A DNA stretch of 64,000 nt from Bacillota bacterium (GTDB lineage Bacteria > Bacillota > Dehalobacteriia > UBA4068). Below are positions 2,799 to 34,145 of this stretch, piece by piece; position 1 is the stretch's first letter; the number at the start of each line of letters is the position of its first letter. The translations under genes and the position numbers were made by a program. Below the pieces are notes generated by a model. It worked only from the letters and a program-made list of their open reading frames with translations. It ran no database searches and was not told where the DNA came from. The stretch lies in NCBI GenBank assembly GCA_031553915.1, contig JAVBKT010000009.1:12520-76519 (forward strand), written 5' to 3'.

Positions 2799-4247
2799 AT
2801 GACGCAGGATAATAATCTATCAACACAAACTATGGAGAGCGCCCAGCAAAGTAATCCCTTGGGCTCCGCTCCTGTCTGGCCCCAGCTATTCCGCTTTGGC
2901 ATACCGGCTATGATCAGCCTGCTGGTGGGCGCGATTTACAATATCACCGACCAAATATTTATCGGCAATGTAGTGGGCATGTACGGCAACGCCGCTACCA
3001 ATGTGGCTTTGCCGCTGGTAACGCTGGTGCAGGCTATCGCCACCTTAATCGCCTTTGGCTCCTCCGCAAACTTTACGATCAGCATCGGCGCGGAAAACAA
3101 AAAAGACGGCGCGCGTTTCACCGGCAATGCCATTAGCCTGTCCATCATTAGCGGTGTTGCTGTTATGGCAATCACTCTCGTTTTTCTCGACCCGCTTATC
3201 AATCTTTTCGGGGCCAGCGTAAACTCTGCGCCGCTCGCAGCAACCTATATTCAAATCACTGCACTCGGCTTCCCCTTTTTGCTCTTTTCGGTTGCCTGTA
3301 CGGATTTGATCCGCTCGGACGGCAGCCCTACCTTTGCCATGATCGCCTCCATTACCGGCGCTGTGATCAATGTCGGGCTGGACGCGCTCTTTATGTTCGT
3401 TTTTGAATGGGGCATTGCCGGCGCAGCTTGGGCAACGGTCATCGGGCAAATTATCTCCGCCGGATTGATAGCCGCCTACTTTACCCGGTTTAAGAGCCTT
3501 AAACTGACAAGAGACGATTTGAAACCACGGAAGGCTATTGTTGGCCCCATCATCAGGCTGGGTATTCCCGGGTTTTTCGGCAGCTTCACTTCCATGGCAG
3601 TGCAAATTACCATGAACAGAACCATGAGCTATTATGGCGGGCTTTCAATATACGGCAGTGATATCCCCTTTGCCGTGATGGCGGTTGTTTCCAGAATCAA
3701 TATTATCGTATACGCCATCAATGCCGGATTTTCGATGGGCGCCAACCCGATGATCGGCTATAACCTGGGGGCAAAAAATTACAAAAGAGTGCGTGAGGTT
3801 TTCCTCAAATGCGCGCTGGCGATTACGATTTCATCGGCCATTTTTACCGCTATTTTCCAAATCTTCCCCGAGCAGGTGGTCAGCATCTTTGGCGGCGGCA
3901 CTGCGGAATATTTCGAATTTGCCGTGAAATATATGCGCATCTTTATCATGCTGATGCCTATCAGCGGGCTGGTGTCTCTGTGTTCCTTCTTTATCACAAC
4001 TACCGGCAAATCATTGCAGGGGCTGATACTGTCCGTTTCCCGGCAAGGCATCCCGCTGATTATCCTGGCTATAATTTTGCCCCGCTTTTTCGGCATTGAC
4101 GGCATTTTGTGGGCCGGGCTGATCGGGGACGCGATTGCCATGATACTCGCGACGATCTTTATCATACCGGTGCTGCGGGATTTAGGCAAAGACACTACAG
4201 AAAAAAATACCCTAGAGGTATCAGGGGAAAAAGCCTTGGAGATGTAA
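2799..4247 (+). CDS. MATE family efflux transporter
   Basis: About 480 aa polytopic membrane protein with MATE-like architecture of 12 TM helices. The SD is GGGAGAGGG. Confidence 0.85.
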   Translation: MTQDNNLSTQTMESAQQSNPLGSAPVWPQLFRFGIPAMISLLVGAIYNITDQIFIGNVVGMYGNAATNVALPLVTLVQAIATLIAFGSSANFTISIGAENKKDGARFTGNAISLSIISGVAVMAITLVFLDPLINLFGASVNSAPLAATYIQITALGFPFLLFSVACTDLIRSDGSPTFAMIASITGAVINVGLDALFMFVFEWGIAGAAWATVIGQIISAGLIAAYFTRFKSLKLTRDDLKPRKAIVGPIIRLGIPGFFGSFTSMAVQITMNRTMSYYGGLSIYGSDIPFAVMAVVSRINIIVYAINAGFSMGANPMIGYNLGAKNYKRVREVFLKCALAITISSAIFTAIFQIFPEQVVSIFGGGTAEYFEFAVKYMRIFIMLMPISGLVSLCSFFITTTGKSLQGLILSVSRQGIPLIILAIILPRFFGIDGILWAGLIGDAIAMILATIFIIPVLRDLGKDTTEKNTLEVSGEKALEM

Positions 4248-17395: not shown

Positions 17396-19798
17396 ATGCT
17401 ACGCATATTGAAACGTAAATCAATCTTATTTTTTGCACTGGTGCTTGTCCTTGTGCTGGCGCTGATGCCTCTGTCCGCTTCCGCGGCAGGGCCGATCACT
17501 ACCGAAGTGGCTCTTACAGAGGCAATTGAAGCGGCCTCTGGTTCCACCACACTGGAGCTCGGAGCAAACATCACCCTGAACTCTACGCTCGCGATCCCAG
17601 CCGGCAAGGACATCACTCTTATTGGCAGCTACAGCTTGATCGGCGCAGATGGGGTGGCGACCATCACTGTCAACGGCACCCTGACACTAGATGGCATAAC
17701 CGTTACCCACACGAGCGACGAGAGCGGCAGAGGGGTGCTTGTCAATAGCGACGGCGTCCTGATTCTGCAAAGCGGCGAGATTTCCGGCAATTCAGACACC
17801 GCAGCTACTGCACATGGCGGCGGGGTGTACCTAGACACAGACGCCACTTTTACGATGAATGGCGGTACCATTTCTGAAAACACCGCAACCGGCAATAGTG
17901 GCGGCGGCGTATTCATAGGTGCAGACGCCACTTTCTCGATGAGCGGTGGCACTCTTTCTGAGAACACAGGACACCACGGCGGTGGTATCTATAGCTCTGG
18001 CGGAACGATCACCCTGTCCGGCACTGCTGCAATAAATGAGAATATCGCCACCAAGGATGGCGGCGGCATATACAATGATAACGGCGCCGTTATTATGGAC
18101 GGCGGCACGATCAATACTAATACGGCTGTAGCCACCGGCGGCGGCGTGCGCAATAACGGTGAAGCAGCCTTCACGATGAATGGCGGCGAGATTTCCGGCA
18201 ACATCTCTGATGCAGATGTTGGCGGCGGCGTTTGTAATACCGACGGCGTGACCTTCACCCTGACTGGTGGTAAAATCACCAACAACACCTCCAATAGCTA
18301 TAGTGGCGGCGGCATCGCCAGCCGCGGATCCACTTTGATCATGAGCGGCGGCGAGATTTCCGGCAACACCGCGCCTGAAGGCGGCGGCGGTATATTGAGC
18401 TGGGAAGCGAACAGCAGCTTTACCATGAGTGGCGGCATCATTTCCGGCAACACTGCCACGAATAGCGACAGCAAGGGTGGCGGCGTATACAATTTTGGCC
18501 CCTCGGTCTTTATCATGACAGACGGCGCCATCACCGCTAACACCGCTGGCAGTGGCGGCGGGGTATATGAAGAAGCCAGTGGCACCTTCACCATGAGCGG
18601 CGGCGAGATTTCCGGCAATACGGCAGCTACCAGCGGCGGCGGCGTCTATACTGCTGATCCGCTGACCATCGGCGGCACAGCAAAGATCACAGATAATCTG
18701 CTCGCAGGCACAAATACTGCCAGCAATCTTTATCTTTGTGACGGCATCTACATCACCCCCGGCTCGGGCGATATTGCCCCGGTTGACGGCATGAGCGTAT
18801 CTGTGCAAACCGCAACTTCAAGCGGCGCATTCATCGCCTTCGGCGCAGGCACGGATGTTGTGCAGTATTTCACTTCTGACGACAGCAGCAAAGCCGCAAA
18901 AGTAGTGGGCGGCGAACTGGTGCTGGTGGATGCAGCGCAAATCACTATCACAGTTTATCAAAACAATAATCTTTGGCATAACCACGGCAAGGTATTTTAT
19001 CTGGAAGCGGACAGTGACCAGAGCCAATATCCGTGTATCGGCACCAATAGCACTGTGACTGTATCTGTCCCCATCGGAACATATTACCTCTACGACCAGG
19101 ATGGCTATACCAGAACTATGATCGAGGTTACAGATTTATCTCCCCTAACCACATCAGTCAATTACATTGAGTATGACCCCTCCCGCATTACCCCGATAGC
19201 CTTCGATGATACTACACCTGATGATACTACACCTGATGATCAGGGACGTCCTTTTGTTGATGTCCTTGCTACTGATTGGTTTGATGCTGATGTGATGTAT
19301 GTCTACGAAAAAGGACTCTTCCTCGGCACAGACGCCATTCATTTTTCACCTTACGGCATCACCACCCGCGGCATGACTGCTACCCTGCTCTGGCGGTTAG
19401 AGGGCAGTCCGGCGGCAACAACGGCAAACTCTTTCCTCGACGTTAACTCCGGCAGCTATTATCAACAGGCCATTGCCTGGGCAGCGGCGAACAACATTGT
19501 TACCGGCTACAGCAGCAGCCAGTTCGGCCCGGATGACCCGGTTACCCGTGAGCAGTTTGCGGCGATTCTCTACCGCTACGCTGCTTATAAGCAAATCGAC
19601 GTTTCCGCTCAGGCTGATCTTAGCGTCTTTAGCGATGCGGGCAATATCAGCAGCTATGCTGTGTCTGCAATCAAGTGGGCTGTTGCCGCCGAGCTCCTGC
19701 AAGGCAACAGCAATAACATGATCAACCCCTCTTTGCCAACTACGCGCTGCGAAGTGGCTGCCCTGCTCCACAGATTCTGTGAGCAAGTGGCAAAATAA
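17396..19798 (+). CDS. Secreted right-handed beta-helix repeat protein with three C-terminal SLH domains (cell-surface / S-layer associated)
   Basis: Signal peptide, then about 14 repeats of roughly 22 aa (GGxISxNTAxxxGGGVY), then three SLH modules (FVDVL…, FLDVN…, FSDAG…). Confidence 0.85.
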   Translation: MLRILKRKSILFFALVLVLVLALMPLSASAAGPITTEVALTEAIEAASGSTTLELGANITLNSTLAIPAGKDITLIGSYSLIGADGVATITVNGTLTLDGITVTHTSDESGRGVLVNSDGVLILQSGEISGNSDTAATAHGGGVYLDTDATFTMNGGTISENTATGNSGGGVFIGADATFSMSGGTLSENTGHHGGGIYSSGGTITLSGTAAINENIATKDGGGIYNDNGAVIMDGGTINTNTAVATGGGVRNNGEAAFTMNGGEISGNISDADVGGGVCNTDGVTFTLTGGKITNNTSNSYSGGGIASRGSTLIMSGGEISGNTAPEGGGGILSWEANSSFTMSGGIISGNTATNSDSKGGGVYNFGPSVFIMTDGAITANTAGSGGGVYEEASGTFTMSGGEISGNTAATSGGGVYTADPLTIGGTAKITDNLLAGTNTASNLYLCDGIYITPGSGDIAPVDGMSVSVQTATSSGAFIAFGAGTDVVQYFTSDDSSKAAKVVGGELVLVDAAQITITVYQNNNLWHNHGKVFYLEADSDQSQYPCIGTNSTVTVSVPIGTYYLYDQDGYTRTMIEVTDLSPLTTSVNYIEYDPSRITPIAFDDTTPDDTTPDDQGRPFVDVLATDWFDADVMYVYEKGLFLGTDAIHFSPYGITTRGMTATLLWRLEGSPAATTANSFLDVNSGSYYQQAIAWAAANNIVTGYSSSQFGPDDPVTREQFAAILYRYAAYKQIDVSAQADLSVFSDAGNISSYAVSAIKWAVAAELLQGNSNNMINPSLPTTRCEVAALLHRFCEQVAK
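19205..19234 (+). repeat. 15-bp tandem repeat x2 (gatgatactacacct) encoding a DDTTP-DDTTP linker inside the SLH protein
   Basis: Exact direct duplication seen in the sequence. Confidence 0.8.
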
Positions 19799-19835
19799 AA
19801 CAACTACTCGTTTTACCTCTGGTTGAAAAATAAAA

Positions 19836-19877
19836 AAAGCAAGCGGTCAGTTGCATAGCTGACCGCTTGCTTTTTAT
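19836..19877 (+). terminator. Bidirectional rho-independent terminator (aagcaagcggtcag / ctgaccgcttgctt plus TTTTT)
   Basis: 13-bp stem and T-run after the SLH protein gene. Confidence 0.8.
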
Positions 19878-19980: not shown

Positions 19981-20271
19981 TCACTGATGGCTATCCATCA
20001 ATTCGCCGCTGTTGGTAAATGTTTCCGCCATCAACAGAACGCCGAGACGAAAGCCGTAGCTAAACTTTTGATATCTGGTGATGGCGTCAATCTCCGCTTC
20101 AGCGTCATTGAACTTTTCCAGAGTTTCTTTTTCCTGCTCGTTCAACGACTCCATCAGCTTTTCCCAATTCTTTTCGCGGAGATATATCAGCTCAGCAAAA
20201 GGCGAATCCTGACCATAAAACTTGACGTCCGGACGAATATTCCCATAGTACAGCTCTTCTAAAATCTGCAT
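19981..20271 (-). CDS. Hypothetical small protein (96 aa)
   Basis: ORF with no recognisable motif, located downstream of the frameshifted RHH ORF. Confidence 0.4.
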   Translation of the reverse strand: MQILEELYYGNIRPDVKFYGQDSPFAELIYLREKNWEKLMESLNEQEKETLEKFNDAEAEIDAITRYQKFSYGFRLGVLLMAETFTNSGELMDSHQ

Positions 20272-20306
20272 AATGATTTCCTTTCTTATTGTAGTTCCGA
20301 CAATGC

Positions 20307-20335
20307 TTGAAAGGAAGTGTGGCGCATGATATAAT
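20307..20335 (+). promoter_or_regulatory. Near-consensus sigma-A promoter TTGAAA-N17-TGaTATAAT on the plus strand, antisense to the flanking minus-strand genes
   Basis: The -35 TTGAAA lies at 20307-20312, followed by a 17-nt spacer and an extended -10 TGATATAAT ending at 20335. Confidence 0.5.
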
Positions 20336-20429
20336 ATTTACGCGACTGCCTTTGGTAGTTGTCGGCTATGAGAGAAGCGGTGTGTTTCTTGGTTGGGGCG
20401 CGCCGCTCTCTCTATTTCTTTTTGAGGTC

Positions 20430-20576
20430 GTCATGAACACGATGAACCCCTCGTCTGACGATTTCGGCTTTTGAAACCTCCAATGTTTTCACACAATCAT
20501 TTAGCTTTTCGGATGTTTCTTTATCAAGCCTCACCTTCAACGAGATATCTTTGGGGTTATCGGTAGGACGACCCAT
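20430..20576 (-). CDS. Ribbon-helix-helix (CopG/Arc-like) small DNA-binding protein ORF, apparently frameshifted
   Basis: The 48-aa ORF is MGRPTDNPKDISLKVRLDKETSEKLNDCVKTLEVSKAEI…. The +1 frame continues with a helix-like tail …VRRGVHRVHDDLKKK*. An extra T lies in the aattt run near 20460. Confidence 0.4.
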
Positions 20577-20720
20577 TTTTTTATTCCCCAATTACATCAC
20601 CTCACTTAATGGGGTCACTAATATTATAACTTACCGACGCCGCAAAGTCAACACCTTACAAATAAATTATTTTATATTAGAGAAAATCTCTCCACATCCA
20701 GACTGCCAACCCTTTAAAAT

Positions 20721-20755
20721 AACAAAGCTTGAAAACTAAGTTTTCAAGCTTTGTT
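20721..20755 (-). terminator. Terminator of the SLH/PstS-like gene (17-bp palindrome aacaaagcttgaaaact/agttttcaagctttgtt)
   Basis: Perfect inverted repeat with T-rich flanks on both strands. Confidence 0.7.
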
Positions 20756-20824
20756 ATTTTATTAAGCCCATCTTTTGATAAACGCTTACACTGCGCTTTG
20801 GTCAGCCCAATATATTCCCTTTTC

Positions 20825-22573
20825 TCAATTTGCTTTCAGCGGACCAAAGCCAGCGTTAACAACACATTCTTGACCGGCTTCGCTAAGCATGTATTTGACC
20901 ATCTGGCGGGCAGGCGCATCCTTTGGCGTATCTTTGCGCAAAGCAATATAGCTGTTGTTCGAGAGCGGATAGCTGCTGTCCGCAATGCTCTTGTCAGTGG
21001 GGTATATGCCATCTATGGCCAACAGCTTCAGCTCTGTCTTAGTGTCGTAGAACATATCCATGTTCTGATAATAATAGTAAATGCTGTAGCCCAGCGCATA
21101 ACCAAGCGGTTCTGTAGTTTTGGCGTTCATCACATCCGTGAGGACATTTGCCATAGAGACAGAGGTCGTCTCGTTTCTGATCTTCGCATTTATTTCGTGA
21201 CCGTACAGGAAATGGCGTTCCATCTGCGCATGGCTGCCGCTGTCATTATTTCGGCAATAAGGATAGAGCAGCGCATCCGGTCCGCCGATCTCCTTCCAGT
21301 TAGCATAGGTGTTGTCCACATATATCTTGCTGATCTGAGTCGAAGTTAGTCCGGTGGCGGGATTATCAGCATTGGTAAAGAAGATCATCGCATCATAGGC
21401 AATGGGGATCAGTTCCAGCTCAACGCCCTTTTCCTTTGCCAGTGCCAGGATGTCGCTGGCCGGATATACCGAGGCAAACACCATATCCACCTCGCCCGCG
21501 ATCAGCCGCTCATAGGAGGCGTAGCTCTTAGAGTGGGCGGCAGGCATCGCGGAATGCCGGTACCCATTGGAAAACAGGCTGCGGAAAACCTCTTGCGTAA
21601 AGGGATAGGTGGAGGTAGAGCCGTCAATAATCGGCATGGCCTGATCAAAACCGTACGCCACCGCAGCCTGCGAGGGATAGATCTGATAGCTCTCAATCAG
21701 CCGCCACAGCAGATGCGCCGCCTCAAAACGGGTCGCGGCCTTTTGCGGAGTGGCATAGTGCGCCATCACTACCTCACCCTCGGCGCCTACCTCCCCAGTC
21801 TCTACCCCGTCTGTGGGCACATCTGAGCCAAAAACAGCATAGGCAGGCAGCGCCCAAGCAGAGATAGTCTCCGCATCCCGCAGGGAATAGGCTGCGGTTA
21901 CGTCTTCGGCAGTCACCCTTTCATTTTTCTCCTGCAAACCCGCTGTCCACAGGGCCCGGGCGGCCATAGTCACAAATTCCTCGCGCGTCACCAGGCGGTT
22001 AGGGTTAAACAGCGTGGCTGAATCGCCCTGGATAATGCCATATGCTTTTGCTACTGCAACAACATCAGCATACCATTCTTCCGCCGGCACGTCGCTAAAG
22101 CCTGCCGGTTCAGCGTCTTTTGTCTCAAGACCAAGCATACGGATGATCATTGCCGTAGCCTCAGCGCGGGTAATATTGGCAAAGGGCAGCGCCTCGCCCT
22201 TGCTGTTCCCTTTGATGATGCCCTTATAAAAAAGTCTTTCCATCATGCTAAACTCGTACTGGGCGGAAATGTCGTCAGCAAAGGTGATCTCCTCGGCCAT
22301 AAAAGCCTCAATTTTCCGCTCGGCATTATCCGTTGGCGCCGTGGCAAAAAGTTGTCCGTCGTAATAATAGGACAAGGGGATTGGCGTTTTATCATCAATA
22401 TAGCGGGCGACCAGACGGTTGGATTCACTAAACCTAAGCTCTCCCCCTTGCGGGTAGGCGATGCTTAATACGGTGAACCCGCTATCTGTTTCCGCGGCAG
22501 CCAGCGCCGCCGGAGTGCTGATACCAAGCAACAGGACACAGCATACCATGATGTATAATATTTTCTTTTTCAT
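20825..22573 (-). CDS. Secreted protein with SLH domains fused to a PstS-like (PBP-like_2) phosphate/anion-binding domain
   Basis: Signal peptide; SLH-like segments (FSDVPAEEWYADVVAVAKAYGIIQG…); C-terminal domain IDGSTSTYPFTQEVF… typical of PstS-family binding proteins. Confidence 0.75.
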   Translation of the reverse strand: MKKKILYIMVCCVLLLGISTPAALAAAETDSGFTVLSIAYPQGGELRFSESNRLVARYIDDKTPIPLSYYYDGQLFATAPTDNAERKIEAFMAEEITFADDISAQYEFSMMERLFYKGIIKGNSKGEALPFANITRAEATAMIIRMLGLETKDAEPAGFSDVPAEEWYADVVAVAKAYGIIQGDSATLFNPNRLVTREEFVTMAARALWTAGLQEKNERVTAEDVTAAYSLRDAETISAWALPAYAVFGSDVPTDGVETGEVGAEGEVVMAHYATPQKAATRFEAAHLLWRLIESYQIYPSQAAVAYGFDQAMPIIDGSTSTYPFTQEVFRSLFSNGYRHSAMPAAHSKSYASYERLIAGEVDMVFASVYPASDILALAKEKGVELELIPIAYDAMIFFTNADNPATGLTSTQISKIYVDNTYANWKEIGGPDALLYPYCRNNDSGSHAQMERHFLYGHEINAKIRNETTSVSMANVLTDVMNAKTTEPLGYALGYSIYYYYQNMDMFYDTKTELKLLAIDGIYPTDKSIADSSYPLSNNSYIALRKDTPKDAPARQMVKYMLSEAGQECVVNAGFGPLKAN

Positions 22574-22969
22574 CGATACCCCTCCTTAAAAAGAACATCT
22601 AGTGACGTAAGCAGTGAGCAAAGCGGATGAGTTATTGATTCCACTCCCCATAATATAAGCATTACAGAGCAGCGGGAGCCTGTAAATACATGCAGCCAAA
22701 TCAAAATATCCGCATAGCTGTGATATTATACCATCGCCGCTTGCGGATATGCCTCCGTTGCCAAGAGGCGATCAAGTATATAAAATAGATGCTCCGCCCG
22801 GAATCGAAGCTTTTAATTTTGTAATATTATATCATACAGCAGATAAATTTACCATGTTCATTAAGGCAATATAGTGCACATCTTCGCCATAATATACATA
22901 AAATAAGGTATATAGTTTTAGGCAAAATACTCAGCTGTCATCTTAATGTCAGTTTTTGAAAGGGATAAA

Positions 22970-23593
22970 ATGAATAACTGCAAATATTATAAGTCTTTAT
23001 CCGGCCGTTGCTGTTTGCCGGGCTCTGCCTGCCCGCGTGCAATACCCGGCCCAACCGGCCCTAACGGCGCAACAGGTGCAACAGGCGCTACCGGGCCCAT
23101 GGGAGAGCCAGGTCCGGTTGGGCCAACCGGACCATCTGGGATGACTGGCGGCAAGCTTAGCTTTGACACCATCACGCCCATTCTGCTATCTCCCTCTAAT
23201 CGCGCCTTTGCGACTGAATGGCCTGTTATCCTTGAGGATTTTGGCCTTACCTTTGATTTGAGCAATCCGCAAAACCCTTCTTTTGGCGGCGGACCGGCAG
23301 TTTATACGCTTATTGTCAATCTGGCTGTGGGCATTGGCTCAAATTTCCCGGATGAGCAAATGAATTTAGACCTGTATGCCAATGGTGTTTTCCTTTCGCG
23401 AGATATTCTATATACGCCAAGCAATCCACCAAAAATCATGCTCTTTAAGATCACCACTCTCTATCAAAGTAGCGATGATCCTGTGACATTGCAGGTGCAA
23501 TTAACTTACCCTTTTAATGCGAATTTCGTATCGGCCTTAGTCTATCCTGCCGACTCCTACCTCACTGTCCAAAAATTTGTTTTTCCCGTCTAA
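22970..23593 (+). CDS. Collagen-like triple-helix repeat protein with a C-terminal globular domain (BclA-like exosporium/spore-surface protein)
   Basis: About 12 GXY triplets (GPTGPNGATGATGATGPMGEPGPVGPTGPSGMTGG), a Cys-rich N-terminus and a C-terminal domain of about 140 aa. Confidence 0.75.
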   Translation: MNNCKYYKSLSGRCCLPGSACPRAIPGPTGPNGATGATGATGPMGEPGPVGPTGPSGMTGGKLSFDTITPILLSPSNRAFATEWPVILEDFGLTFDLSNPQNPSFGGGPAVYTLIVNLAVGIGSNFPDEQMNLDLYANGVFLSRDILYTPSNPPKIMLFKITTLYQSSDDPVTLQVQLTYPFNANFVSALVYPADSYLTVQKFVFPV

Positions 23594-29989: not shown

Positions 29990-30635
29990 GTTGTTGCCTC
30001 CTTGGCATATTATTTTGTTTGCTCTTTGGCTTTGGAGCTTTCGGGTAGCCATTAGGGATGCGAATTCATGTGTCTCAGACGGCATCTGATCAAGCCGGAG
30101 CTAGTGCATTGCCCAGCTCAACCATCAATCCACCGGGATGTCGGCAGTTTTGGCTGAAAAACAGTGAGTAGATCTTGATGAAAAAATTGTTTTTCGTAGT
30201 ATATCTACGGGGAATACTTTTTTCATTAAGAGATGCCAGCGTTTTTCAGAACCTACCTGGCCTTTGCTTCACAAAGTCACAGGTAATGCACTAGCTTCGC
30301 GTCGCAAAACCACATGTGGTTCGAATTTCTAATGGCTAAAGCTCTTTTTAATTTTATACATATTTATCTTTTTATTATTTGACAATTAAGTAGTTTTTTG
30401 TAATTTTTTATACTTCTTAAATATTGATCAATATTTTACATAAAAAACATAATAAAATAAAAAAATTTATCTAATATTAATTCTTATATTAAAATATCAG
30501 ATAAACACATTTAATAATTAAATTAATTATAAATAATTACAAAAAATAAATAGCTCACATTTATATAAAAAAATATTTTTGTAATTATTTATAGTTTTAG
30601 AAAAAATTTTTGTACTATTAATTATGGTAAAATTT

Positions 30636-31205
30636 TTACCAAATTCCTTTTTGGCATAAATCAACTATAGTGATGCCTTGATCGACTTTTTGGCTAAAGG
30701 CATGGCAACAGCGGTCATATTCATCAAAAAGCTGCCTTGCCCTTTGCGGGTTAGCATATACCTTCCAATGTCCACGCAAAAGATAGTTTTGGCCCCGGTT
30801 GCGGGCAAAACCATAAAAATCAGCCAGCGGATAGCCCAAAAACAGCCCGATTTCATGAGGGAAATTAGCTTTAGCCTTAAACCTTTGGCGCAAATAAGCC
30901 AAATTAATATTAATTTCTCCTGTCCCGGGATAACCACAGCCGAGCAAAATAGCTTTAATCTGCCTGCTATTGATTATCTCACTTAATTGCTTTTGCCGAT
31001 AAACCAAAAGCAAAGCGTATTGCTCACACTGATAGATGATCTTGAAAAAAATATCTAGTTTGTTTAAATTTTTATTATAGATATCAACCAGGCTCACTAG
31101 ATCAGGATATTTTTGCCAATGGCAAGCCACCAGGTTAGCCGGTTTAAGCCCGGCCAAGGCAGGCGCACAAAAATGCGCCAATATTTGATCAAAGCTACGC
31201 GCCAT
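30636..31205 (-). CDS. DUF3793 family protein (paralog of 46394..46942)
   Basis: Shares LAxxCxPxL..KPA, FPHE(I/V)GLFLGYP.AD..GF and G.WKVY with the second copy. Confidence 0.7.
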   Translation of the reverse strand: MARSFDQILAHFCAPALAGLKPANLVACHWQKYPDLVSLVDIYNKNLNKLDIFFKIIYQCEQYALLLVYRQKQLSEIINSRQIKAILLGCGYPGTGEININLAYLRQRFKAKANFPHEIGLFLGYPLADFYGFARNRGQNYLLRGHWKVYANPQRARQLFDEYDRCCHAFSQKVDQGITIVDLCQKGIW

Positions 31206-31295
31206 CTCTTTTTCCCCACAAACTAAGCCTGCTTTGGCTTATTGTTTGAAGAAAAGCAGCGCGATATGCAGCAAAAATATACTCATTATTGACGG

Positions 31296-31331
31296 CGCCC
31301 ACAAAAAACCAGCAGCAAAATTTTGCTGCTG
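31296..31331 (-). terminator. Hairpin accagcagcaaaa / ttttgctgctggt with T-run
   Basis: 13-bp inverted repeat seen in the sequence. Confidence 0.5.
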
Positions 31332-31393
31332 GTTTTGCATCCTTTGCCTGTTTAAAGATCACGGCAAAGCCAGTTCTCTTTCACATTTGCTTA

Positions 31394-31753
31394 TTATATA
31401 ATAGCCGCTCCCAGCTGCCTTGCTTCTTCAAGAACGGGGTTACCGATAATATCACCGATTTCATTAACCCCGCCTGCCAAAACCTGGCCAATGTCCTTCC
31501 AGTTCAGCTGCTGCAAAATCTGTTGATAATGCTCTACTACATGAGAAAAACCGTGCCCTTCAGCTGCCATCATCAAGATGCACTCTTTAAGCGGATTGCG
31601 GTAATTAGGATTGCTTTCCGCCACCGCAAACAGACGATCAAAAGCACATTTAAGCTGGCCGCTAATGCTCCAATAATAAAGCGGAGAAGCCAGAACCACA
31701 ATATCCGCCTCTTGATAGGACGGGTATATCTCATCCATCCCAAAAAGCAGCAT
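31394..31753 (-). pseudogene. Flavodoxin-like-fold (NAD(P)H-dependent FMN reductase / WrbA-like) gene fragment with only the C-terminal part present
   Basis: 119 aa matching the C-terminal half of flavodoxin_2-type proteins (IVVLASPLYYWSISGQLKCAFDRL). A stop codon lies immediately upstream and there is no N-terminal FMN-binding loop. Confidence 0.45.
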
Positions 31754-32437
31754 CTATTGTTAATGTGTACTGTTGCTGACGCTATACAAGGCTTGCAAAC
31801 AATATATGATAATTTACTGATACTGGAAAAACATCTAGAAAATAGCGATATTGATAGCATGGAAAAACAATTTATTGCTTTGTCAAACCATAATTACACC
31901 GCAAAAGATTAACTATATAGTCTTAACAAATCTACTATTATCAATCAAGAGGCCAATTAAACACAAACCACCTCCCACTTACGTTTAGTAGAATAGATGT
32001 ACATCATTGCCACATTATTTCCAGAAACACTTGTTACCATAAAGAAAGAAGCCCCGGCGCTTGGCTGGGAGCTTCTTTCTTTATGCTGCTATCAACAGGC
32101 TAACATGAATGCTATGGAACAGTTCAAGTTCTTGATAGCAATGCGCAATAAAGGCAACCCGAATGCCTCTATCACCGGGAATTATTGGCATGATCAATAG
32201 TAAAAATTGCTATCTGATATTGACCACTTGTGGGCAAAAAATAGACAAAAAATTTTAACTAATTCGAGCTTATTATAACATAATTGCGGCTTGGGCAATA
32301 GTAGATTTGATCTAATTAAGCGCTTTGGCGCATTGACACTGCGGCCAAAAAAGGCGATAATATTTATTAACCAAGCTAAGCTGCAAACAAGCGAAATTTT
32401 CACGTCTGGCCAGAGCGCTGGCAGAAGAGGATGAAAA

Positions 32438-32905
32438 ATGAACGATTATAATTACAACTATAGCCCGCCAAAACCACAGTTGCAGGATGAGCTGGCTTAT
32501 GTGCAGAAAAATATTGACTATTATAACGGTCGCTGGGGTTCAGCCATGGGCTCCAGATATAAAGGCTGGAATTTTGTCTGCATGTTTTTTCCCTATGAGT
32601 GGATGTGCTACCGCAAAATGTATTTAGAAGCTTTCTTGTCATTTGCAGCAGTATTTGCCTTAAACTTTGCACTCTTTTTTATGCCCAGCGAGGTCTTTGT
32701 CTGGGCGATACGTTTGGCTTTTGGCGCAGTGGGCAATATGCTTTATTGGCGCAAAAGCCAACGGATGATTAAACGCACTGACGCTATGGACGACCAGGAT
32801 CGTCTGGAATTTTTGCAGGCAAAAGGCGGAACCAGTATCCCCGGCCTAGTTATCTGTGTAGCGCTGGAAATGGGCTATTTGTTTGTGATCTATTTTCTGC
32901 TTTAA
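32438..32905 (+). CDS. DUF2628-like small membrane protein
   Basis: 155 aa with a Tyr/Asn-rich N-terminus followed by two TM helices. Confidence 0.5.
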   Translation: MNDYNYNYSPPKPQLQDELAYVQKNIDYYNGRWGSAMGSRYKGWNFVCMFFPYEWMCYRKMYLEAFLSFAAVFALNFALFFMPSEVFVWAIRLAFGAVGNMLYWRKSQRMIKRTDAMDDQDRLEFLQAKGGTSIPGLVICVALEMGYLFVIYFLL

Positions 32906-32943
32906 CAATATTTGGGCTTGCTTGTCCATTTATCTACATATGC

Positions 32944-32976
32944 AAAAAAGGCCAAGCATGTTTGGCCTTTTTTGCA
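32944..32976. terminator. Bidirectional terminator (aaaaaaggccaa / ttggcctttttt)
   Basis: Perfect palindrome with poly-A and poly-T flanks. Confidence 0.75.
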
Positions 32977-33034
32977 TACGAGGGGAATTTTGAAGCTTTT
33001 TATACCATGAACACATTTAGAAGGAGGTCAATTA

Positions 33035-33511
33035 TTAGTCACTAAGAGCATTATCTATCAATAGCATCAACTCTAGTGCACTGCGAAAGCTGATTTCCAG
33101 ATTCTTGTCCATCCACACCAGGCTACCCTGCCAACTGGCATTTTTACGGAAAACAACTTTAACAGAAAAGGTTGCCAGCTTGCCACAAGGGATATTCACC
33201 TCAACATCCCTCTTGATGCCAGTCTCTGCGGCTTCCTTTTGGTCCAGATCAGAGCCAAAACCTCGTTTTTGAGAAAAGGCTTGCGGGTATCCTGTATCAT
33301 CCAGCAATTGTTCCTGCAAAAGAAGCAGTTGCATAGCATTATCAAAAGTTTTCTCTTTGGCATAATATGGATGATAAAACACGCCCGACAACCTTTTTTC
33401 ATCATAATTATTAATAGCCACAATACTGGGGCTACTGATGGTAGAAAAGGGTACGTTTGTCATAGGCTGTTTTTCCATAGAATTTGTGCATGCTAAGCCA
33501 AAACTTAACAT
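33035..33511 (-). CDS. Hypothetical protein
   Basis: 158-aa ORF with no recognisable motif. Confidence 0.35.
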   Translation of the reverse strand: MLSFGLACTNSMEKQPMTNVPFSTISSPSIVAINNYDEKRLSGVFYHPYYAKEKTFDNAMQLLLLQEQLLDDTGYPQAFSQKRGFGSDLDQKEAAETGIKRDVEVNIPCGKLATFSVKVVFRKNASWQGSLVWMDKNLEISFRSALELMLLIDNALSD

Positions 33512-34145
33512 CCTCCGATGTTATATAGTAGAACCTGATAATAATATTTTAGAAACAAATTTCTTTCTCTAAAATCAATTATACTAAACAAAAGTTACAT
33601 TAAAATTACATTTCGCATTTTTCTTTACATTTATTTAATAATTTTATAAAATATCACCAAGAATTCTCATTAACACACTAAGGGATCGCTCGACATAGTC
33701 CTAATTGCCGAACTTTATAATGGAGGTATTACCTGACTTAAGATATCATTGTCTATAAACACGGAGGTTATACATTAAGCGTTTGTATATAAGTATTATT
33801 TACTCAAATATTATAGTTAATTTTCCTTTGCAAAAAAATATTTAAAATTGCCAATCTGTCAAGAATATAAACACTATTGGCAATATGAACGGTGTTTTTG
33901 CAAAATTAAACCACTAGCAAAAATCTCTTAAAATAAAATCCATATTTTTATCTAATTCTTCAAAATAATTAATTATTAATATTTATTATCACTTAATCTT
34001 TACCAAACAGATATAGCTATGCTATAATTATAATAACTTTATTTTTACACATTTTTGGCAATAAAATTTATTGTCAATTTCATAGATAATGTATCTCAAA
34101 ACTGTGTTAATAAAATATCTCACTGCGTTTTATGGAGGTTTCGCA

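Follow-up and report, generated by a model that had tools for sequence, protein, structure and literature searches.

A probable cis-encoded antisense RNA between the ribbon-helix-helix and DUF6809 genes of mobile elements in Clostridia

A 64,000-nucleotide (nt) stretch of a Bacillota bacterium (contig JAVBKT010000009.1, positions 12,520 to 76,519; hereafter the window) carries two neighbouring minus-strand genes, one encoding a small ribbon-helix-helix (RHH) repressor and the other a protein of the family DUF6809. The spacer between them very probably contains, on the plus strand, a conserved and expressed gene for a cis-encoded antisense small RNA (sRNA), as judged from comparison of homologous loci. 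We consider it reasonably likely that this sRNA forms part of a module of Tn4451-like elements and of prophages of Clostridia, and that it blocks translation of DUF6809 by releasing a sequence complementary to the Shine–Dalgarno (SD) region of that gene (the anti-SD). The RNA family is apparently undescribed: in Rfam 15 no family reaches the gathering score at this element in the window, and none reaches E <= 10 in the surrounding 1.1-kb region.

Promoter, hairpins and terminator of the antisense RNA

The antisense promoter, P(as), occupies positions 20307-20335 of the plus strand and consists of a -35 box (TTGAAA, 20307-20312), a 17-nt spacer, a TG dinucleotide (20327-20328) and a -10 box (TATAAT, 20330-20335). 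This extended -10 promoter (TTGAAA-N17-TGaTATAAT) agrees with the sigma-A consensus at 11 of 12 positions. It is the sole match when both strands of all 64 kb are searched with TTGACA-N14-TGNTATAAT, allowing at most one mismatch; shuffled sequences yield a mean of 0.06 such sites, and only 6 of 100 shuffles contain any. P(as) lies between the RHH-like gene (20576..20412) and the DUF6809 gene (20271..19981) and points away from the latter, in the orientation antisense to both.

Homologues of DUF6809 were gathered and aligned, and 105 loci were retrieved from genomes and metagenomes. An RHH homologue stands upstream in 17 of them, separated from DUF6809 by a spacer of 140-158 nt (once 181) whose sequence is strikingly kept; the DUF6809 proteins of these loci share 35-70% identity with that of the window. 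The element was then searched for with an nhmmer profile and with a covariance model, R1, and closer relatives and two predicted viral contigs were added. Thirty distinct full instances, exactly one of them in the window, were found in Clostridia genomes, metagenomes and the two predicted viral contigs, which themselves carry the RHH-element unit. Named carriers are Anaerotaenia torta DSM 100431 (L004 in our numbering of loci) and Lachnospiraceae bacterium 64-25 (L020). The element always follows an RHH gene of the 'MGRPTDNPK' type, lying directly downstream of it, and usually precedes DUF6809. The reading frame of the RHH family always ends at the antisense terminator. Neither nhmmer nor the covariance model found the element in the remaining approximately 75 DUF6809 loci. 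Of the 77 loci picked out by a pattern scan of viral contigs, the covariance model accepts just 3 instances, in 2 contigs; the others are generic strong promoters.

Although the flanking proteins of the 30 instances are only 35-80% identical, promoter, hairpins and U-tract are conserved. All 30 keep a -35 box (TTGAAA in 25, TTGAAT in 4, TTGCCG in 1), a -10 box (TATAAT in 25, TAAAAT in 4, TACAAT in 1) and the TG dinucleotide. The spacer measures 17 nt in 26 instances and 18 nt in 4, and its letters drift freely. Retention of the hexamers at a constant distance, while the sequence between them changes, argues for a working promoter. One degenerate copy (L011b) has lost the promoter and retains the terminator part alone.

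The sRNA predicted downstream of P(as), from its fold and from the covariance model, is about 80 nt long (20342..20422, plus strand). It folds into a 5' hairpin and a terminator hairpin with an energy of -40 kcal/mol (z = -5.9; none of 200 shuffles equals it). R1 matches the window at 20339-20423 (54 bits, E 2e-14) and has a single copy in the 64 kb. The 5' hairpin (20341..20364) is present in the minimum free energy (MFE) fold of every homologue, and each homologue folded on its own gives the same succession of 5' hairpin, terminator hairpin and U-tract. The intrinsic terminator (20370..20423) comprises a hairpin at 20370-20412 and a U-tract at 20413-20423, which reads UAUUUCUUUUU. A site scan placed a terminator-like hairpin at 20376-20407, the stem being longer in the folded RNA. 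In most homologues the tail holds 6-8 U within its first 9 nt. The terminator overlaps the RHH stop codon and about the last four RHH codons.

Covariation supports both hairpins. In the model alignment of the 30 sequences, 91.6% of cells are paired over the two hairpins and 98.5% over the terminator helix, percentages that are somewhat inflated by the fitting of this alignment to the structure; the terminator helix presents the same picture on a plain MAFFT alignment. Sixteen of 23 pairs have been altered on both sides, among them 10 of the 12 pairs of the 5' helix, and compensatory change is found in 6 of the 11 terminator pairs. Their covariation score of 0.330 exceeds the 0.204 of shuffles, none of 500 of which equalled it. 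When the partners are slid by 1-3 columns, pairing falls to 42-65%.

A G·U pair on one strand corresponds to an A·C mismatch on the other, so that the two strands can be told apart. Across both helices, a 24-sequence alignment contains 95 G·U cells and 6 A·C cells, of which the 5' hairpin helix alone contributes 54 and 4. The hairpins are thus maintained for the plus, antisense strand and not for the operon mRNA. Similarly, pair 52-86 of the terminator is U·G in 15 of the 30 sequences, C-G in 11, U-A in 4 and never A·C; it is therefore functional on the plus strand only. Both purifying and compensatory selection act on the two antisense hairpins, and they do so on the plus strand.

These results confirm the core of the original prediction, which had been made from the window sequence without database searches. 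It had described a near-consensus sigma-A promoter between two minus-strand open reading frames (ORFs), firing in the plus direction into a short terminator-bounded antisense transcript, with a hairpin at about 20378-20409 and a 3' end overlapping that of the RHH-like gene. The homologous loci with the same promoter–hairpin arrangement that it proposed to look for are among the instances described above. Its statement that no protein-coding ORF exists on the plus strand needs qualification: mechanical ORFs of 55 amino acids (aa) (20307-20474, TTG start) and 25 aa (20359-20436) do exist there, but both lack an SD and neither is conserved as coding sequence. The antisense RNA has no AUG in 11 of 24 homologues, none of the homologues has an SD, and RNA lengths differ by non-multiples of three. 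These observations rule out a conserved coding sequence, and the antisense RNA is accordingly non-coding.

The 5' hairpin loop, CUUUG, is YUNR-like and complementary to a sense-strand pseudo-SD, AAAGG, described below. A YUNR-type loop is found in the 5' hairpin of 20 of 24 homologues. In classical antisense systems pairing is initiated by loop–loop contact. Since both loops of the RNA bear a conserved CUUUG/UUCG-type motif, such an initiation would fit here, a comparison drawn in part from the discussion of a plasmid system (PMC4485353). A target in trans was also considered, with the CUUUG loops pairing with the 5' untranslated region and SD of RHH. This candidate was rejected: RNAduplex energies do not differ between cognate (-29.2 kcal/mol) and non-cognate (-27.4 kcal/mol) combinations, and the duplexes are implausible.

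The sense leader and a predicted translational switch

The minus strand of the spacer is itself structured. In its MFE fold, the sense leader between RHH and DUF6809 (20293..20372, minus strand) forms a long-range helix between CCGACAA (20365..20359) and UUGUCGG (20303..20297), which closes a hairpin around the antisense promoter. This helix is possible in the sense RNA only, because its 3' arm lies upstream of the antisense -35 box. Inside the hairpin, the pseudo-SD AAAGG (20353..20349) pairs with CCUUU of the anti-SD (within 20317..20309), and the apical loop, which contains the antisense -10 box, is closed by a short stem, GCGUA/UGCGC. With a MAFFT alignment made independently of structure, the sense fold has 72% of its cells paired, against 62% in shuffles and 31-48% in slid controls, and its covariation score is 0.306 against 0.152 (equalled by none of 500 shuffles). 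Helix columns 9-13/78-82 show multiple pair types, and cognate arms bind with -9.6 kcal/mol on average, compared with -6.4 kcal/mol for non-cognate ones.

This sense-only helix covaries and houses the antisense -10 box in its apical loop, as would be expected if the element were simply a sense cis-regulatory leader for DUF6809, protein-binding or attenuator-like, whose plus-strand promoter and terminator are by-products and which makes no functional antisense RNA. We regard this explanation as highly improbable. It does not account for the retention of -35 box, 17-18 nt spacer, TG and -10 box in every instance despite the variable spacer sequence, and the hairpins in which G·U cells so outnumber A·C cells would be mismatched in the sense RNA. 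Furthermore, a U-tract follows the hairpin on the antisense strand only, and the element persists in two copies (L003b, L078b) that have neither the sense helix nor DUF6809.

The DUF6809 SD region, GAAAGGAA (20278..20285, minus strand), has an unusual and conserved form, UGAAAGGA. Its perfect complement, the anti-SD UUCCUUUC (20316..20309, minus strand), overlaps the antisense -35 box. Partition-function folding of the window leader gives the SD a probability of being unpaired of 0.55 when the leader is free and 0.03 when the part complementary to the antisense RNA is blocked. If the upstream sequence is shuffled, the latter value becomes 0.45, and occlusion as strong as that of the native sequence is reached in 1% of shuffles. 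Over 20 loci, the mean probability drops from 0.53 in the free leader to 0.20 with the antisense target blocked, compared with 0.50 for the blocked state of dinucleotide shuffles upstream of the SD. Occlusion is significant in 13 of the 20 loci (<=5% of shuffles do as well).

From these foldings we propose that the antisense RNA probably switches off translation of the downstream gene. The operon mRNA would start at the RHH promoter, P(RHH), which the RHH protein probably autoregulates. In the free leader, the pseudo-SD would hold the anti-SD and leave the DUF6809 SD open. The antisense RNA, whose full complement spans the RHH 3' end and the 5' half of the leader, would probably make first contact through its two CUUUG-type loops. 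The resulting duplex would take up the pseudo-SD together with the 5' arm of the long helix, so that both are lost to the leader fold. The freed anti-SD could then pair with the true SD and block translation of DUF6809, and also of TnpV where the two are translationally coupled. Cleavage of the duplex by RNase III and occlusion of promoters by convergent transcription may add to the effect.

Several observations weigh against this proposal. Both ends of the RNA, a start at 20340-20342 and a 3' end at 20419-20423, are predictions, and its transcription is deduced from sequence. The antisense RNA ends about 57 nt short of the DUF6809 SD and could therefore influence translation only indirectly. 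Three loci (L014, L088, L103) show the anti-SD switch weakly or not at all, and in three more (L005, L020, L093) it is marginal. Four RHH-element copies are not followed by DUF6809 (L006b, L003b, L105b, L078b), for which reason control of DUF6809 cannot be the only role of the element, and in two of them, L003b and L078b, the long-range helix is absent as well.

The antisense RNA may instead be real but act on the fate of the mRNA. RNase III would cut the 80-bp duplex and thereby uncouple or destabilise the RHH part, the DUF6809 part or both; alternatively, convergent transcription from P(as) would hinder elongation. Complementarity over the full length of about 80 nt is inherent to the arrangement, and the overlap of the antisense RNA with the RHH stop and last codons fits such an action. 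Units that lack both DUF6809 and the anti-SD context (L003b, L078b) and tandem arrays (L006, L078, L140) would tie the function to the RHH transcript. This account leaves unexplained the conserved complementarity of anti-SD and SD, the covarying pair of pseudo-SD and anti-SD and the conserved form of the SD. We view it as possible but doubtful when taken as the whole explanation; it is compatible with the translational model.

The RHH-DUF6809 operon and its mobile context

The RHH gene (20412..20576, minus strand) encodes 54 aa from its ATG, beginning MGRPTDNPK, and is the first cistron of the operon. Its product matches Pfam RHH_1 (E 0.006) and PHROG 876, annotated 'transcriptional repressor' (E 4e-13); a profile search of the PDB returned nothing better than E 0.17. 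P(RHH), at 20623..20651 on the minus strand, reads TTGACT-N17-TATAAT and agrees with the consensus at 11 of 12 positions. Homologous loci retain TTGACT, the 17-nt spacer and a -10 box. On either side of the P(RHH) -10 box stand repeats of 10-15 bp that differ from locus to locus (window 20600-20651, minus strand, and L002, L004, L006, L014, L078, L083, L092 and L103). They are inverted in L004 (TTTTGCCACC/GGTGGCAAAA), L092, L014 (15 bp), L006, L078 and L002, direct in L083, L103 and L006b, and weak in the window and in L093. Because their orientations are mixed, protein binding is a better explanation than an RNA hairpin, and the repeats are probably the RHH operator.

The DUF6809 gene (19981..20271, minus strand) follows 140 nt downstream of RHH on the same strand and is the presumed regulated cistron. 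It encodes 96 aa whose sole significant Pfam match is PF20648 (E 2e-22). An AlphaFold2 model (pLDDT 75) depicts a helical hairpin, and the protein is soluble and acidic. Foldseek finds nothing below E = 7 in the PDB, there is no meaningful match in PHROGs, PADLOC or NCBIfam, and our literature search found no paper naming DUF6809. A site scan revealed a terminator-like hairpin at the end of the operon (19983..20002, minus strand) and, in the spacer (20272-20411), neither a promoter nor a terminator in the sense direction. As RHH has its own promoter and no such signal intervenes, RHH and DUF6809 are most likely cotranscribed as one operon.

In the window this module is a 0.7-kb island between genes for SLH-domain surface proteins (17396-19798 and 20825-22573), each with its own terminator. 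No TnpV or recombinase gene adjoins it, and on these grounds it is probably an orphan copy. Perfect, long palindromic terminators at 19834-19875 and 20716-20760 bracket the module. The former, which is bidirectional and lies between an SLH gene and DUF6809, resembles the Enterococcus sRNA Ref64 of Rfam with 26 bits (gathering score 44), a generic terminator similarity only. The two SLH-domain genes are adjoined by an ORF (22946-23593, plus strand) with a collagen-like GXX repeat, like exosporium or surface proteins of the BclA type. Farther away, the G+C content of positions 30001-34000 is 0.37, compared with 0.45-0.52 around them, and this segment may be a horizontally acquired island.

Elsewhere the module is associated with genes of mobile elements. 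TnpV often follows DUF6809, on Tn4451-like mobilizable elements, and for the Tn4451 protein a role in excision has been postulated from its similarity to lambda Xis (PMC3158075). Intact elements are exemplified by L187, L185 and L002. Locus L002 contains a large serine recombinase, a helix-turn-helix (HTH) protein, TnpV and a methyltransferase. In L185 and L186 the order is small ORF, element, DUF6809, TnpV, HTH, serine recombinase; in L187 and L188 it is Mob_Pre, small ORF (53 aa), element, DUF6809, TnpV, HTH_17, restriction/methylase. DUF6809 and TnpV overlap by 8-26 nt in these loci. In L014, three DUF6809 genes stand in tandem ahead of a Mob_Pre relaxase gene, and two or three tandem paralogues also occur in L004, L007, L020 and L096. 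In L003, a tRNA gene (2860-2932, minus strand) lies about 70 nt downstream of DUF6809, as expected if the element had integrated beside a tRNA.

Tandem arrays of the type RHH-element-RHH-element-DUF6809 are found in L006 (1719-2422), L078 (1341-2423), L003 (1431-2422), L105 (1113-1412) and L140 (90-1190). Some upstream units of these arrays have neither the sense long-range helix nor DUF6809. Since units occur both in tandem and without DUF6809, the pair of RHH gene and antisense element is the conserved core. A T-box leader (RF00230, 103 bits) lies beside the tandem RHH units of L006 (1248-1507, minus strand) and is unrelated to the antisense element; an unrelated T-box and a tRNA are all that Rfam 15 returned at gathering score in 18 homologous loci.

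Many of 20 inspected DUF6809 loci without the element have a different, conserved hairpin upstream. It lies directly before the DUF6809 SD, as GAGCGGCTCTG..CGGATTTCACCG..AGCCGCTCTTGCTTTA-GGAGG, in L017, L024, L026, L037 and L054 (at about 2400-2500), and as a variant in L021, L022, L025 and L028. It is preceded by a conserved promoter-like sequence, CTGGACTT...TGTGATATACT, and a possible short leader ORF. No Rfam family was found at this hairpin in the three loci searched (L017, L024, L021). DUF6809 genes thus seem, from these loci, generally to stand behind structured leaders.

Relation to known control systems and significance

Control by a countertranscript together with an RHH repressor is textbook knowledge for small Gram-positive plasmids. 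To our knowledge, no such control has been reported from the integrative mobilizable elements that gut and environmental Clostridia carry, and literature searches for cis-antisense RNA with ribbon-helix-helix proteins in clostridia, and for TnpV with antisense RNA, found no papers. Mob_Pre (MobV) relaxases, the family found on plasmids of the pMV158 type, accompany some of the loci studied here.

By analogy of arrangement, the closest counterpart is the CopG/RNAII control of pMV158. In its copG-repB region, a 48-nt intergenic countertranscript, RNAII, is bounded by an intrinsic terminator and prevents translation of repB; it has a single-stranded 5' tail and one hairpin, with no U-turn loop (PMC4485353). 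The original prediction had been reminded of plasmid copy control by the architecture of the site, and the comparison with copG-rnaII-repB holds at that level (PMC4485353). In both systems a small RHH repressor gene comes first, upstream of the controlled gene and on the same strand. The countertranscript gene is intergenic and runs in the opposite direction, with its own promoter and intrinsic terminator. The mRNA segment to which its RNA is complementary precedes the translation signals of the second cistron, and in pMV158 the RNA inhibits translation of that cistron (PMC4485353).

The differences are nonetheless considerable, and no sequence homology to the pMV158 system was detected. The controlled gene here is DUF6809, with TnpV after it in some loci, and not the Rep initiator of a rolling-circle plasmid; the module resides on integrative mobilizable elements, in prophages or in a chromosome. 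The present RNA is about 80 nt long, in contrast to the 48 nt of RNAII, and has two hairpins with YUNR-like loops, of which the 5' one begins at +1 to +3. The promoter of this RNA is placed between the target region and the SD and is enclosed by a covarying hairpin of the sense strand; inhibition would use an anti-SD rearrangement instead of direct coverage of the start signals.

Control of the pIP501, pAMβ1 and pT181 type works by countertranscript-driven attenuation (background given partly in PMC4485353). The CopR + RNAIII type of system resembles the present one in combining a repressor protein with a multi-hairpin antisense RNA, in starting with kissing loops and in refolding the sense leader. 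However, the leader here has no inducible intrinsic terminator and its predicted refolding hides the SD, and the repressor is an RHH protein encoded upstream in the same operon. Transcription attenuation was itself considered and rejected: there is no terminator-like site on the minus strand at 20272-20411, and the sense-orientation hairpin is followed by C/A-rich sequence.

The other analogy drawn by the original prediction, with type I toxin-antitoxin (TA) systems, did not stand. Like hok/sok, fst/RNAII, txpA/RatA and the RCd RNAs of C. difficile, the present RNA would be short, constitutive and terminator-bounded, it lies in cis over a 3' or untranslated part of the mRNA and it is carried by mobile elements. 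Its partner genes, by contrast, encode an RHH regulator and a soluble protein of 96 aa. No small hydrophobic toxin ORF lies opposite the antisense RNA, the minus strand at 20272-20411 has no ORF of at least 25 aa, and there is no match to an Rfam type I family.

More broadly, the module could be a type I or hybrid TA system in which a DUF6809 toxin is checked by an RHH antitoxin together with the antisense RNA. The RHH-first gene order resembles that of type II systems, the RHH family has weak profile matches to the antitoxins RelB and MazE9 (E 0.7-0.8), and the module is small, autonomous and carried on mobile elements, with an orphan copy in a chromosome. DUF6809, however, belongs to no recognised toxin family and, as a soluble acidic helical hairpin, has no PADLOC or PHROGs match and no PDB fold at E <= 0.001; it thus lacks the marks of the toxin partner in a type II system with an RHH antitoxin. 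Nor does a spacer of 140 nt look like that of a typical type II pair, and DUF6809 occurs as two or three tandem paralogues and is translationally coupled to TnpV. Together with the points that argue against type I, this makes a TA module very unlikely.

A conserved cis-antisense RNA that controls the RHH-DUF6809 operon is important in several respects. It defines a new RNA family, absent from Rfam, whose helices covary clearly, whose strand is assigned and whose proposed switch can be put to the test. It also illustrates cleanly how a promoter can be embedded near the apex of a hairpin formed by RNA of the opposite strand, and because of this embedding one DNA segment is under three constraints, those of promoter, sense structure and antisense structure. 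For DUF6809, and for regulation of the RHH-DUF6809-TnpV module, it would provide a first functional handle. This module accompanies TnpX-type recombinases and MobV relaxases, and elements of these types spread antibiotic-resistance genes in clostridia.

A more ambitious reading, which we put forward as speculative and rather unlikely, is that RHH repressor, antisense RNA and structured, promoter-bearing leader together constitute a compact bistable switch that decides expression of an excision/transfer module. Sense transcription would occlude P(as), and DUF6809 and TnpV would be turned off by the antisense RNA. DUF6809 itself would on this view belong to a new class of small regulators, for example an anti-repressor or a recombination directionality cofactor. 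If the proposed control is real, the switch would time the expression of excision and transfer modules in mobilizable elements of the Tn4451 family and in some prophages of Clostridia and, given the tandem arrays and orphan copies, would be a portable, self-contained RNA–protein control cassette.

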